45,371 nt of DNA from an uncultured bacterium (GTDB lineage Bacteria > CAZSTA01), in NCBI GenBank assembly GCA_964609495.1, contig CAZSTA010000005.1:1-45371 (forward strand), in the 5' to 3' direction. The position numbers and the translations under genes are program-made. Positions within the stretch are counted from its first letter, which is position 1. Each line of letters starts with the position of its first letter. The notes under the pieces are model-generated. The model ran no database searches, had not been told where the DNA came from, and saw nothing but the letters and a program-made list of their open reading frames with translations. This document shows positions 1,598 through 42,036 of this stretch, piece by piece.

Positions 1598-1646
1598 TTA
1601 AACAAAGGTAATTTCTTCATATCGTTCTTTCTAAAGTTAATAGCCA

Positions 1647-1806
1647 GTATCTAGGTTCCATTAAGGATTAAAAGGGAAATCGGTGCGAAGCCGATACGGT
1701 CCCGCCACTGTAATCGGGGAGCGAACTCGCGGGCATACCACTGGGATAACTATCCTGGGAAGGTGCGAGGAAGCGATGATCCGAGAGTCAGGAGACCTGC
1801 CAGATG
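1647..1806 (+). ncRNA. Cobalamin riboswitch
   Basis: AAAAGGGAAATCGGTG..CCCGCCACTGTAA..CCACTGGG..GGGAAGG..AGTCAGGAGACCTGCC (B12 box), upstream of Btu-type genes. Confidence 0.96.
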
Positions 1807-1883
1807 CGAAAGTCAAACTGCCTTCGGTTGAAAGGGGGTGAGACAAAAGCGCGATATTTATATCGTGTTCCCACTAAAATGTT

Positions 1884-4043: not shown

Positions 4044-6080
4044 ATGTCGAAGTTAAAGAGATTTTCCGGAGAGTTATTGTTGGTACTAACACTCATCTTT
4101 GCTTTTCAAATAGGAGTTCTAGCTCAAGAAGCCTACGAGCTAAAACTTAAAGAGGTAGTTATAACTGCTGCTAAACTGGAACAATATTTGAAGGACGTTC
4201 CCGTCGCCACTGAGGTGATAACCAGGGAGGAGATCGAGGAAAGTGGTGCTAAGACCTTAAGAGAGATTGTGGAGGATAAAGTAGGGCTTATCGTTAGAGG
4301 TTATGGAGGATTGGGTTCACAATCCTCGGTGAGTATAAGAGGATCAAGTTCTCCCCAGGTATTGGTGATGATCGACGGAAGACCTATAAATTCTATCACC
4401 GCGGGTTCAGCAAATTCGAGCGATATACCATTAGATATGGTGGAAAGGATCGAGATCATTAGATCTCCCTCCTCAAGCCTCTACGGAGCAAATGCTCTCG
4501 GAGGAGTAATCAATATCATTACCAAGTCTCCCCCCCAGAAGAGGACAATTGAAGCTAAGTTGGAATATGGCTCCTACAACACTCAGAATTACATTGCGAG
4601 CTATGGAGCCAGTAGCAAAGTGGGATTGGGATATATCCTTTCCTTCACCCATCAAGCCTCCGATGGCTTTCGGGATAACAGCGACTATGGGATGAATAAC
4701 CTCTCCCTTAAGCTAGATTATAAGATCATGCCTTCAGCCTCAGTTACCATCTCCGCAGGCTATAAGGATACCGATCTGGGAGTGCCAGGGCCAAGACCTC
4801 CTACGGGAACGACCCCCAAGTATGGCAATGAGGAGGTAACATCCCTCTACGATCGTCAGAACACCAGCGGGTGGTTTAGACAACTAGCCTTCGATTGGGA
4901 TATGAGCGATTACTCCACCTTGAAGGCTAAAACCCACTTAAATAGCGATACTCTGGAATACAAAACTGTCTATGACGACTGGATGACAGGGGCGAAGTTG
5001 GAGGAAAAGAACAAATATGTAACTGACACTATGGCAGTTGATCTCCAATATGAATATAAGGAGATCGCCTCTCACCGCCTAGCCGCGGGATTGGAGTGGC
5101 AACAGGACAAGGCTGATATGAATCAGGAGGTCAAGAACATCGAAACAGGCGAGGTCACTCCTACAAGCTGGAATCCAGAGGCGAGTAAGTATGGATTATG
5201 GGTTGAGGATATATGGTCCATAGATCCCGAGTTGGATATCACTCCGGGGCTTCGCTTTGATAACCACTCGGAGTATGGATCCCAACTTAGCCCTCGACTG
5301 GGAATGCTATATAACCTGAGCGAGAAGGAAAGGTTTAGAGCCTCGATAGGAACTGCTTATAGAGCCCCCACCTTCAACGATCTTTACTGGCCAACTGGCG
5401 GCAATAAGGATCTGAAGCCAGAGAAAGGGTGGTCGCTCGAGATGGGTCTTGAGGATACCTCAACTGCATCTCAGCTAAAACGAGGCACCTTATTCTATCG
5501 AAATGTAACTGATCTCATCGCTTGGGTGCCAAATGCAGAAGGAACGTGGCAGCCAACAAATGTGAATTCCTATAATGTCCTAGGATTTGAATTAGAGTTG
5601 GAAACTGAGATCAATGAGAAGGTGTCAGCTGGGGTAAATTATACCTTCCTCCATGCTAAGCAGACTAATTCAGAGGTGGTATATTCCGACTGGATGACGG
5701 GTGAGGAAAGGAGAGAGAAGGTAACCAGAGATGCTGCTTTCGTTCCTAAGAACAAATTAGGATTTGACTTAACCTGGAAACTATCACCTTGCTTGAGAAC
5801 GGTCTTTACTGGAGTAGTGGTTGGGGAGAGAGTGAATTACTATGCTAATTACTCTAATGCACCTATTGTAACGATGAAGACTAAGAAATTGCCCAGCTAC
5901 TTCCTTATGAACGCTAAGGTAAGCGGAACTTTTGCGGACAATTACGAAGCATTTCTTAAGCTCGATAATATCTTCGATGCTGATTATCAGGAGCAATTTG
6001 GCATATCCTATGACGATCGGGGTTATCCGATGCCTGGGCTGACCTTGAGCTTGGGGGTCAAGGCGAATGTGAATATCTAG
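4044..6080 (+). CDS. TonB-dependent outer-membrane receptor, BtuB-like
   Basis: Signal peptide, EVVITA TonB-box region, plug motif ERIEIIR..SSLYG..ALGGVINII, C-terminal NIFD..Y..PG; lies in the B12 operon. Confidence 0.9.
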   Translation: MSKLKRFSGELLLVLTLIFAFQIGVLAQEAYELKLKEVVITAAKLEQYLKDVPVATEVITREEIEESGAKTLREIVEDKVGLIVRGYGGLGSQSSVSIRGSSSPQVLVMIDGRPINSITAGSANSSDIPLDMVERIEIIRSPSSSLYGANALGGVINIITKSPPQKRTIEAKLEYGSYNTQNYIASYGASSKVGLGYILSFTHQASDGFRDNSDYGMNNLSLKLDYKIMPSASVTISAGYKDTDLGVPGPRPPTGTTPKYGNEEVTSLYDRQNTSGWFRQLAFDWDMSDYSTLKAKTHLNSDTLEYKTVYDDWMTGAKLEEKNKYVTDTMAVDLQYEYKEIASHRLAAGLEWQQDKADMNQEVKNIETGEVTPTSWNPEASKYGLWVEDIWSIDPELDITPGLRFDNHSEYGSQLSPRLGMLYNLSEKERFRASIGTAYRAPTFNDLYWPTGGNKDLKPEKGWSLEMGLEDTSTASQLKRGTLFYRNVTDLIAWVPNAEGTWQPTNVNSYNVLGFELELETEINEKVSAGVNYTFLHAKQTNSEVVYSDWMTGEERREKVTRDAAFVPKNKLGFDLTWKLSPCLRTVFTGVVVGERVNYYANYSNAPIVTMKTKKLPSYFLMNAKVSGTFADNYEAFLKLDNIFDADYQEQFGISYDDRGYPMPGLTLSLGVKANVNI

Positions 6081-25904: not shown

Positions 25905-25993
25905 ATAGGGGGAGGAATCCTCCCCTAAAAGGTAACTTTTTGCTTCAAATAGAACTCACGGTTAAAAAAGTTACCTTTTCTACCCCTCCTATT
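25905..25993 (+). repeat. Repeat B interrupted by repeat A copy 2 (25927-25979)
   Basis: ATAGGGGGAGGAATCCTCCCCT[A]CTACCCCTCCTAT; compare the uninterrupted B at 40059-40095. Confidence 0.85.
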
Positions 25994-26676: not shown

Positions 26677-26906
26677 CCCCCCTCACCCTTAAAAGGTAAC
26701 TTTTGCTTCAAATAGGACTCAAGGTTAAAAAGTTACCTTTTATCCCTCTCCCACGAGGGGAGAGGGAACACTTAGATAAGCTCGATCTCTTTAGTTCCCC
26801 CTCCCTTGACGGGAGGGGGTTAGGGGGAGGGTGATAATTAACAAGATTCCTTGATAGTCTTATTAATTCAGCAAAAACCAAGATGGGAGGGGTTAGGGAA
26901 GGGTGA
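26677..26906. repeat. Cluster of CCCTCACCCT-x-CCCTCTCCC..GGGAGAGGG palindromic repeats, the first interrupted by repeat A copy 3 (26691-26741)
   Basis: One forward and two inverted copies between rplQ and the methyltransferase; a related hairpin lies at about 13527-13551. Confidence 0.75.
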
Positions 26907-34582: not shown

Positions 34583-35050
34583 TCAAAGTGGCTCGACTTT
34601 GATCAGGGATTCACTTACTTCTTTGAAGCGTCCTCCCGCAGCTTCGATCTTCTCCTTTGCAGCCTTGGAGAAGCGATGGGCTACCACAGTTAGAGCTTTC
34701 TCCAGTTTCCCATTCCCTAAAATCTTAACCCCATTGTTATTCTTAGTGATGAGGCCTCTCTGAAGGAGTAACTTGGGAGTGACAACGGTGTTCTCCGCAA
34801 AGGCGTTTAAGCTGCGAATATTCACTTCAGCATAATTTTTCTTATTAATATTTTTAAAACCTCTTTTGGGTGATCTCATATAAAGAGGTGTCTGTCCGCC
34901 CTCGAAACCTCGGCGAACCTTGGAGTGAGCCTTCTGTCCTTTCATCCCCCGACCTGCCGAGCCACCATGTCCAGAGCCATATCCTCGCCCTAACTTTTTT
35001 TTGCGTTTTCGCGATCCCTTAGGTGGTTTTAGTTCGTCGATTCTAATCAT
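34583..35050 (-). CDS. rplO: 50S ribosomal protein L15
   Basis: [16 protein letters not shown]. Confidence 0.98.
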
Positions 35051-35465
35051 CTTAAATCAGGCACGGAGACCCCGACTGATTTTCTTTTCAATCAGTCGGG
35101 GAGGAAGTGCCTACCCTCCTCCCTACTAAAAGTAGTTGGTGTAACAAATGCCCTTGTGGTAGGGGAGGAAGTTGATCTTACCTCCTCCCCATAACAAGGT
35201 TTGGACACTAATATAAAGTGTCCCTCCACCTCACGGTGGGTTAGAGCCTCTTCGGAGCTGTTAGCAAAGGTTTTTAAGCTTACCACACTGTCCCTACCCC
35301 CAGGACTGTTTAATAGCAAGCCACAGAGCTTGGAACGAGAGGAGTATCCCAAGGTGTGTATGTGATCTCTCTCTGCTAACTTCTGCATCTTTCGGTGCCT
35401 CCTAGTCAACCAGGGCTTGGTCTCCCAAGCCCCTACTGATTTTTTAATCAGTAGGGGTAGTTGAC
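35051..35465. mobile_element. Non-autonomous IS200/IS605 element (omegaRNA only, no iscB or tnpA), 415 bp
   Basis: Both ends present: TCAT|..GAGA-hairpin CCCCGACTGATT..AATCAGTCGGGG, and CAAG-hairpin CCCCTACTGATT..AATCAGTAGGGG-TAGTTGAC|. No target duplication. Confidence 0.9.
35203..35465 (-). ncRNA. omegaRNA / HEARO-like RNA scaffold (3' end approximate)
   Basis: Minus strand GTCAACTACCCC..GGGGCTTG..GTTGACTAG..ACACCTTGGGATACTCCTCTCGTTCCAAGCTCTGTG..TTAAACAGTCCTG..GGACAGTG..CCGAAGAGG..CTAACC matches my recollection of IscB omegaRNA layout. Confidence 0.85.
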
Positions 35466-35704
35466 TTCGCTTCTCCTTCACTAGACGATCTTGAGAGGGA
35501 GGGATCCTCCTCTATATTTAAAGAGGCTCGCTCAACCTCTAACAGATATTCCACTTCCTTGATCATCCCTCTTATAACTGGATTATCATCATGCCATACG
35601 ACCTGATTTATCTTCCTTAATCCTAAGGCCTTAACAGTTCTTCTGTGCTTTGGTATCCTTCCTATTAGGCTCTTCTTCAGAGTTACTTTGAGTTTTTCAG
35701 TCAC
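35444..35704 (-). CDS. rpmD: 50S ribosomal protein L30 with a C-terminal extension running into the element
   Basis: [25 protein letters not shown]; start is GTG 35704 or ATG 35722. Confidence 0.93.
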
Positions 35705-35784
35705 TTCTTCTCTCTCCCTCATTGCAGATCTCTCCATCTTTCTGCTATCCGACGATGTCCCTCCCCCCAAAGTTGGGCTTAACC

Positions 35785-35893
35785 AGAGGAGGAGGAATCC
35801 CCCTAAAAGGTAACTTTCGCAGAAAATCGGGGGGGGAAAATTCTCTCCTCAACCCCCTCTTATACAAATAGGATCAAGGTTAAAAAGTTACCT
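35785..35893 (+). repeat. Repeat B remnant plus repeat A copy 5 (35805-35893) with a B-like unit in its loop
   Basis: AAAAGGTAACTTTCGCAGAAAAT[CGGGGGGGGAAAATTCTCTCCTCAACCCCCTCTTATAC]AAATAGGATCAAGGTTAAAAAGTTACCT. Confidence 0.75.
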
Positions 35894-35896
35894 ACA

Positions 35897-36391
35897 TCAA
35901 GTTATTTCGCCTACTGATTTTCCTCTTACCCGAGCGACCTCCTCAGCCGTTCTAAGGGATCTTAACCCAGCTTCAGTGGCTCTAACTAGGTTTACCTGGT
36001 TAGAACTACCTAATGATTTAGTCAGTATATCCCTTATCCCAGCCATTTCCATAACGGCTCTCACCGGCCCACCGGCGATTACCCCTGTTCCTGAGGAGGC
36101 TGGTTTCAGTAGTACTTTCCCAGCGTGGAATTCCCCGATTACCGAATGGGGAATGGTAGCTCCTACTAGGGGAACGGTGAAGAGGTTCTTTCTACCATCC
36201 TCAACTCCCTTGCGAATAGCATCCGCAACTTCGTTCGCTTTACCGAAGCCGACTCCCACCCTACCGTTTCCATCCCCAACCACCACTAAGGCACTGAAAC
36301 TAAACCTACGACCACCCTTGACGACCTTGGCTACCCGGTTTATATATACTACTTTCTCCTGTAGCTCTATTTCCTCTTCAGCATTATCCAC
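35897..36391 (-). CDS. rpsE: 30S ribosomal protein S5
   Basis: [22 protein letters not shown]. Confidence 0.99.
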
Positions 36392-41947: not shown

Positions 41948-42036
41948 ATAGAGGGGGAGGAATCCTCCCCTAAAAGGTAACTTTTTGCAGGAAATAGAAT
42001 TCACGGTTAAAAAGTTACCTTTTCTACCCCTCCTAT
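41948..42036 (+). repeat. Repeat B interrupted by repeat A copy 9 (41972-42023)
   Basis: Near-identical to the composite at 25905-25993. Confidence 0.85.

Follow-up and report, generated by a model that had tools for sequence, protein, structure and literature searches.

Several groups of mobile elements and structured RNAs described earlier are close to the object of this study. ISC transposons, according to the accessible passages of Kapitonov et al. (2016, PMC4810608), carry GTCA at their 5' termini and are inserted at N|ATGA targets without target duplication. As reported in the cited parts of Meers et al. (2023, 10.1101/2023.03.14.532601), omegaRNAs of IscB need transcription from outside the element, their guide also originates outside it, iscB elements tend to have the same orientation as the gene upstream of them, and palindrome-associated transposable elements (PATEs) often encode omegaRNAs for use in trans. 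Here we consider a 415-nt element at positions 35051-35465 (minus strand) of a 45,371-nt stretch of DNA from an uncultured bacterium of a salt-marsh community (contig CAZSTA010000005.1 of assembly GCA_964609495.1; the whole stretch is called the window below). Judged from its sequence, it is an IscB-type transposon derivative (ISC, IS200/IS605 superfamily) without an open reading frame (ORF), situated in a ribosomal-protein operon between the Shine-Dalgarno (SD) sequence and the start codon of rplO, the gene of ribosomal protein L15.

With ISC transposons, as far as the cited text describes them, the element shares the GTCA terminus, subterminal hairpins, insertion 5' of ATGA without duplication, a multicopy state and the usual lack of an own tnpA, but the copy considered here is devoid of any iscB. 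With PATE-like elements it has in common the absence of a protein gene, the preservation of both ends and an omegaRNA needing a nuclease made elsewhere; however, the passages concerned speak of TnpB acting in trans, whereas here an RNA of the IscB type, in sense orientation, lies precisely at a start codon within an essential ribosomal operon. The dependence on host read-through transcription is the same as that given there for IscB-type guides. The HEARO family (Rfam RF02033) has the same full-length, high-scoring structure, but the following HNH (IscB) ORF, the source of the family name, is missing here. IStrons, which combine a group I intron with IS200/IS605 ends, belong to the same superfamily and are likewise found inside transcribed host regions, where phenotypic silence would be advantageous; in contrast to them, neither a group I intron nor a ribozyme match was obtained at this locus, and no spliced junction was seen among assembled contigs, the only form of read evidence used. 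Finally, in genes 38 and 25 of phage T4, SD-AUG spacings of 22 and 27 nt are shortened to 5 and 11 nt by hairpins (PMC3014915, cited part). The same arrangement of a too distant SD and AUG with a hairpin between them occurs at rplO, but here the 54-nt hairpin is a transposon end, the SD-like block is that of the element and not of the host, and its role is predicted.

Elements of this kind have been described before, as have their target motif and the need for transcription by the host. As far as our literature search reaches, the position between SD and AUG at rplO, the start-codon habit of related elements in this genome, the overlaps of iscB stops with host starts and a covarying left-end (LE) structure are new. 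No start-codon association of ISC elements was found in the literature searched, subscription journals and supplements being outside its scope, and start codons, ribosomes and intergenic context are unmentioned in the accessible passages of Kapitonov et al. (2016, PMC4810608).

The Element and Its Insertion Site

On the minus strand, the genes follow in the order rpsE, rpmD, the 415-nt insert, rplO (34583-35050; Pfam Ribosomal_L27A) and secY. The boundaries of the insert were obtained from an alignment of four sister copies, in which similarity runs from GTCAAC to GATTTRAG and the flanks differ outside, together with the empty site described below. The termini GTCAAC and GATTTAAG are mutually unrelated, and hairpins are subterminal at both ends, without terminal inverted repeats. 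At the right end (RE), a perfect 12-bp hairpin with a 4-nt loop (35430-35457, minus strand) serves at the same time as the first hairpin of the omegaRNA. No ORF is conserved among the copies, and a 129-aa frame (35092-35481, minus strand) was rejected as a gene, having no Pfam match and being closed by stops in 3/3 sister copies. The original prediction of an element with two hairpin ends, an IscB-type omegaRNA and no credible ORF holds in its coordinates as well as in these features.

The insertion was traced with the help of a relative. Scanning of metagenomes with L15 gave 142 hits, of which 80 loci were kept, with a single close relative among them, contig L051 (1224 nt; L15 91% identical). 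This contig is without the element: AAGGAGAAGCGAA runs straight into ATGAGT, and in the BLAST alignment its positions 813/814 correspond to window positions 35466/35050, exactly 415 nt being absent with no duplication. Because 813/814 join directly across 35466/35050, the 415 nt represent an insertion without duplication. By this alignment, the element is inserted, as had been predicted, exactly between the rplO SD (AAGGAG, 7 nt from the ATG) and the ATG, and L051, the sole close relative, has the expected empty junction with one base different in the 23-mer. The 40 other genomes scored gave no empty site, being kin only at the level of the same domain, with a best L15 identity of 58%. A contig joining 35466 to 35050 was also absent from Logan contigs of two DNA and two RNA runs, a weak negative since contigs only were covered. 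Two listed joints, 35081/35446 and 35081/35200, with sides of 20-36 nt, fit shortened copies at other loci, such as C65 and C225.

The ATGA at 35047-35050 (minus strand), i.e., the rplO start codon plus one base, is the transposon target and the presumed target-adjacent motif (TAM) of IscB. This role, proposed originally, agrees with L051, with ATGA flanks at nine ISC elements of the genome and with the published N|ATGA target (PMC4810608, accessible passages). The copy was inserted immediately 5' of the gene-strand ATGA, presumably via the Y1 transposase TnpA; from the point of view of the transposase, this is insertion 3' of TCAT on the plus strand of the window. The rplO SD was thereby moved 415 nt from its AUG and became part of the presumed omegaRNA guide segment. 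This segment, the end of rpmD in flanking host DNA (35466-35481, minus strand), is located directly 5' of the scaffold and differs between copies; its length of 16 nt is an assumption. The former SD at 35473-35478 falls inside it, and the flanking 16-mer followed by ATGA equals the empty site by construction.

The gene rpmD (35444-35704, minus strand; Pfam Ribosomal_L30) reads 7 codons into the element (K-STTPTD) up to a stop at 35444-35446, in agreement with the original prediction, and now terminates 21 nt inside the element. In L051, the rpmD stop is a TAG 4 nt beyond the TGA of ATGA (ATGAGTAG overlap). The window has in its rpmD tail about 31 nt (35480-35510, minus strand, single copy) that are absent from L051, and because these nucleotides shift the frame, the stop before insertion would have been the TGA of ATGA here, against the TAG in L051. 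The proposed ATGA overlap of rpmD and rplO is therefore correct for the joined flanks of the window, but it does not extend to L051.

The omegaRNA

The suspected IscB-type scaffold was recovered far above threshold by a covariance-model search: HEARO RF02033 matches 35240-35465 (minus strand), at the RE of the transposon, with 133.7 bits (gathering score 83, E=1e-27), covering model positions 1-211/211. The omegaRNAs adjoining intact iscB genes in the same genome score 124.8 and 135.8 bits, and the most similar of them, beside the iscB of contig C77, is 83% identical to the scaffold considered here. Compensatory double changes were found at 27/57 predicted pairs among 12 genomic HEARO copies. 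The downstream iscB (HNH) ORF that adjoins members of the family is not present, and only a vestigial iscB start is left. A permissive Rfam search of 34900-35950 returned HEARO and three sub-threshold eukaryotic matches (two small nucleolar RNAs and one long non-coding RNA).

The element is oriented in the sense direction inside the ribosomal-protein operon, and a scan of the minus strand upstream of the omegaRNA found nothing promoter-like. Since no promoter is evident in the element, the omegaRNA would come from transcription of the spc ribosomal operon. Evidence from reads was taken in the form of assembled Logan contigs from two DNA runs (X1, X2) and two RNA runs (X11, X13); X1 may be the source sample of the window itself. 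The RNA libraries, belonging to two coded studies, gave contigs 35235-35510 (276 nt) and 35257-35506 (250 nt), both with 0 differences and both consisting of the omegaRNA scaffold with 45 and 41 nt, respectively, of a locus-specific unique 5' flank. It may be stated with moderate confidence that the omegaRNA of this copy exists as RNA. In these contigs rplO and the rest of rpmD are uncovered, which is uninformative in assembled contigs. A DNA contig from X1 (35249-35692, 0 differences) spans the omegaRNA-side junction and runs on to 35692 while the RNA contigs end at 35510 and 35506, which is a weak hint at an RNA 5' end near 35506-35510.

This omegaRNA could be loaded by IscB supplied in trans from full-length copies at other loci of the genome. 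The loaded nuclease could cut restored empty sites, recognized by the guide match plus ATGAT, and such cutting would favour the insertion being kept.

Related Copies in the Genome

In the genome assembly (349 contigs, 99.45% complete), 12 HEARO copies score above the cut-off and two more are weak. Six RRXRR matches to iscB were found, comprising two full-length ORFs (413 and 399 aa) with both RRXRR and HNH and four contig-truncated ones. The whole assembly has one Pfam Y1_Tnp match, a tnpA remnant (C343:1227-1640, L001) in which the HUH motif is kept, a frameshift is located upstream, and the frame is cut after ...LWSKGYY by a HEARO element of a third subfamily.

The same ends are common to this copy (C5), C225, C82, C46 and full-length C31, all at unrelated loci. 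Comparison with the full-length copies C31 and C77 identified a vestigial iscB ribosome-binding site with first codons at 35206-35230 (minus strand), in which ATG is changed to ATA and next to which the deletion junction lies. The substitution of ATA for ATG where iscB once began, and with it the same junction, recurs in C5, C225, C82, C46 and C6. Because at least five copies share both, the shortened form itself multiplied. As comparison of the copies shows, a full-length element lost iscB through an internal deletion that left both ends in place, together with the whole omegaRNA at the RE and a remnant of the iscB ribosome-binding site; this iscB-deleted derivative then spread in shortened form. 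An internal hairpin (35162-35190, minus strand) resembles the LE of the second subfamily (C6/C77 type). In the full-length A-type copy C31, the LE inner hairpin is lost.

Some other copies should be mentioned as observations in their own right. The C31 copy (C31:4099-5587, L015/L141) is located downstream of a near-consensus promoter (TTGACT, 17 nt, TATAAT). The full-length B-type copy C77:10503 (L132) lies in an ATGA stop/start overlap, where the upstream ORF ends at +4, and the pyrD-like gene of C77 has a 24-aa N-terminal extension with a copy of the other small repeat described below. Two miniatures of 60-80 nt (C65:~5270-5341 and C78:~4930-5000) have the RE hairpin joined to the LE tail; one of them, flanked by GTGA, separates the SD of a flavoprotein gene from its ATG, the second is found immediately before the SD belonging to a gvpA-like gas-vesicle gene, and a weak HEARO remnant (C78:8165-8276) precedes a second gvpA-like gene. 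The window itself opens inside another iscB (3-866, an open frame of 287 aa), followed at about 867-920 by a degraded left end with a ...TTTT|ATAAA flank, which belongs to another subfamily with another target motif and is not at a start codon. In contigs of other genomes, the end motif was matched a single time, in a haloarchaeal coding region without a hairpin, and this match was read as chance.

Start Codons as Flanks of ISC Elements

Nine ATGA-flanked ISC elements, belonging to three subfamilies, were found in the genome. In 8/9 the flanking ATG coincides with the first in-frame start available to a real gene. The genes concerned are rplO, a NUDIX gene, a 759-aa ORF whose first 400 residues gave no Pfam match, rlmN, an Asp23-like gene, an LptC-like gene, pyrD and the gene of an EamA transporter. 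The profiles of RlmN and EamA match from residues 4 and 7 onwards, respectively. The ninth copy (C225) is intergenic, and one iscB copy (C275), with an ATGG flank inside a gene remnant, was left out of the count. The SD is lost in all seven element-adjacent genes scored: pairing is absent from six of them, and the seventh reaches only -2.9 kcal/mol.

By a crude gene call, the genome has 40,111 ATGA sites, 916 of them at predicted starts and 7,347 in non-coding DNA. An 11% null gives P of about 1e-6 for 7/8 start-codon insertions, a rough value, but the enrichment survives much more generous nulls. The null fractions of the gene caller are rough. It called only 3/7 of the flanking ATGs, because it prefers starts with an SD; the sites were therefore checked one by one by empty-site reconstruction and Pfam. 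Much of the start-codon pattern is explained by the ATGA target, selection against intragenic insertion and the need for sense transcription taken together, but these three factors fail to explain the preference for a position after the SD over one before it.

Stop codons of iscB are often close to the host starts. In C31, the iscB stop is the TGA of the flanking ATGA and overlaps the rlmN start, and the same overlap occurs in an unrelated genome (G190, L133), with a tentative boundary. The iscB stop precedes the host ATG by 4 nt in C76, by 28 nt at two loci of genome G131 and by 62 nt in C77. Matches to iscB occur in 8/300 other genomes, and three loci there have a recognizable ATGA flank; two of these (L144, L133) abut long ORFs and the third (L134) does not, all with tentative boundaries.

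A far-reaching explanation is that ISC elements of the N|ATGA type use start codons as docking sites and are built to be tolerated there: sense docking would guarantee transcription of the guide, the iscB stop would hand ribosomes over to the host gene, and the LE, with its SD-like block and a covarying hairpin at a fixed distance from the host AUG, would be a portable ribosome-binding site. We regard this idea as tentative, possible but open to considerable doubt. If true, it would explain an ORF-less copy between the SD and AUG of rplO.

Translation of rplO

Loss of a recognizable SD in front of rplO, also a part of the original prediction, is supported by calculation: the SD/anti-SD duplex of rplO amounts to +0.6 kcal/mol with the element and to -9.2 kcal/mol in the reconstructed empty site. 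For the 22 genes of the window the mean is -9.4 kcal/mol, with 21/22 at -6 or better, and the 16S tail is canonical. No second gene for L15 was found in the genome besides this rplO (one match). We infer that L15 must be initiated without a conventional SD, most likely by SD-independent initiation or with the help of an element-borne split ribosome-binding site. The rplO AUG has an unpaired probability of 0.82 and is situated about 8-10 nt after the extended LE hairpin, and direct initiation at this largely unpaired AUG following the terminal hairpin would be the most likely route, possibly helped by an SD-like block of the element. Nothing in the analysis points to folding that rejoins the host SD and AUG.

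In the extended LE hairpin (35059-35112, minus strand; 23-nt imperfect), a 5x5 internal loop of pyrimidines separates the outer stem AGGCAC/GUGCCU (35107-35112 with 35059-35064) from an inner stem of 12 bp (35070-35101, minus strand). The SD-like block GGGAGGAGGG (35114-35123, minus strand) stands 2 nt 5' of the hairpin and can pair with the downstream CUUCCUCCC. In 10/10 LE ends, representing five sequence types and three genomes, the outer stem is fully paired (5/5 bp) and surrounds a pyrimidine internal loop and an inner hairpin, while the flank starts 7-10 nt after the stem; pairs were counted per sequence, internal loops of 4-6 nt per side being allowed. The probabilities of outer-stem pairs are 0.58-1.0 across the ends and 0.7-0.9 in this copy. 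RNAalifold, applied to an automatic LE alignment with misaligned gaps, recovered the outer stem in part only.

Summarizing these data, it may be concluded that a non-autonomous, ORF-less member of the ISC group is the best explanation of the insert, including its origin, insertion and guide use, with a probability of about 0.75. Several points weigh against it. No intact transposase was found, which leaves present mobility unsupported, and tnpA may be unassembled in an assembly of 349 contigs. The RNA contigs cannot give strand, ends or level, and DNA may be present in RNA libraries. The rplO-side junction is poorly bridged, the listed DNA contig entering the element by 16 nt only. The closest omegaRNA with an intact iscB neighbour is identical to only 83%. 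The production of L15 at normal levels would be a conclusion from sequence alone. Finally, the fold of minimum energy contains a rival hairpin, in which the SD-like block is paired with the CUUCCUCC behind it.

The last point concerns the proposal that the element itself replaces the displaced SD. The extended LE hairpin would fold and bring GGGAGGAGGG to an effective distance of 10-13 nt from the host AUG, so forming a split ribosome-binding site. There is some structural support for this predicted approach of block and AUG. In 5/5 A- and B-type ends, a GGAGG-rich block precedes the outer stem by 2-3 nt and the stem is separated from the AUG by 8-10 nt, so that the geometry of block, stem and AUG is constant; the complete pairing of the stem in all ten ends agrees with the proposal, and so does the ensemble, where the block is 25-50% unpaired. 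The block of full-length C77 comes just after the iscB stop codon and is hence non-coding, and the principle is documented for T4 (PMC3014915, cited part). However, the intervening hairpin of 54 nt is larger than in the T4 cases, C-type ends do not have this geometry, and the extended stem is probably kept for recognition of single-stranded DNA by the transposase. In the subfamily of the ATAAA type, a change of the matching upstream block goes along with one of the loop sequence (GGGGAUGGAA with UUUCAUCCCC), which suggests that pairing with the loop is the main role of the block and its SD likeness is perhaps incidental. In our opinion, this arrangement as the working ribosome-binding site of rplO is rather doubtful.

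It is unlikely that the insert is an inert relic, i.e., a fixed passenger, mildly harmful or neutral, with an omegaRNA used by no IscB and no mobility. The finding of tnpA only in degraded form, the full-length A-type C31 without the LE inner hairpin and the lack of an empty-site contig in the four runs are in line with such a state. On the other hand, the omegaRNA scores on a par with those beside intact iscB, its structure is kept by compensatory changes, contigs from RNA libraries contain it, and the genome has two intact iscB ORFs.

Re-initiation seems improbable to a still greater degree. Ribosomes would start at the vestigial iscB ribosome-binding site (GGAGG, GUG at 35206-35208), translate about 38 codons, opening the hairpins, stop at the UGA at 35092-35094 and restart at the rplO AUG 41 nt downstream; in a variant, a 5-codon mini-ORF with a GUG at 35062-35064 would end at a UGA that is the TGA of ATGA. 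Indeed, no stop interrupts the frame between the vestigial start and the UGA in the LE hairpin, and in full-length relatives iscB stops near the host ATG, which makes a hand-over of ribosomes plausible for the family. However, ATG is changed to ATA in all ORF-less copies, the GUG is 14 nt away from GGAGG, C46 and C82 have earlier stops in this frame, a gap of 41 nt with no SD is ill suited to re-initiation, and the GUG of the mini-ORF is without a free SD.

That removal of the element restores the gene, either by IStron-like RNA splicing or by precise DNA excision in a subpopulation, is extremely unlikely: precise scarless excision belongs to the chemistry of Y1 transposases (Meers et al., 10.1101/2023.03.14.532601, cited passages) and IStrons demonstrate that elements of this superfamily are spliced from RNA (10.1101/2023.11.20.567912, accessible part), but the permissive Rfam search gave no intron or ribozyme family in 34900-35950 at E up to 1, and no intact tnpA was found in the assembly.

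Other Repeats and Side Features

Upstream of rpmD lies rpsE (35897-36391, minus strand), and BLAST comparison of the window with L051 showed a further insertion of about 113 nt between these two genes. This repeat (35787-35899), absent from L051, also occurs at 41950-41995, 26709-26738 and 25907-25939; BLAST against the genome gave 18 matches, of which several fall into this cluster of ribosomal-protein genes. The C82 element harbours a related piece, which also occurs near the start of pyrD on C77. The repeat looks like a separate family similar to miniature inverted-repeat transposable elements, with a hairpin end of the GGGGAGGATTCCTCCCC type.

The 31-nt segment 35480-35510 lengthens L30, and the 5' ends of the RNA contigs (35506, 35510) are located at its upstream edge. 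In another part of the window, a cobalamin riboswitch aptamer was found (1635-1818, plus strand; Rfam RF00174, 120.7 bits).

Conclusions

The locus represents a natural translation experiment. In a bacterium where strong SDs are otherwise used, the SD of rplO has been moved hundreds of bases away, and so has that of at least six further genes, rlmN and pyrD among them, yet the genes are intact. SD-independent or structure-assisted initiation is directly testable in this genome.

The elements described are also a resource, namely a compact 226-nt omegaRNA family with ATGA as the presumed TAM and with natural RNA-only copies needing a nuclease from elsewhere. Their conserved extended LE hairpin is a feature of transposon ends not met in the cited passages of the earlier works.

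For the family as a whole, the ATGA target and the need for transcription of the guide by the host appear to channel the surviving insertions of obligate mobile element-guided activity (OMEGA) systems of the IscB type to start codons. The overlaps of iscB stops with host starts suggest that these elements are tied into the translation of host genes in addition to their transcription.

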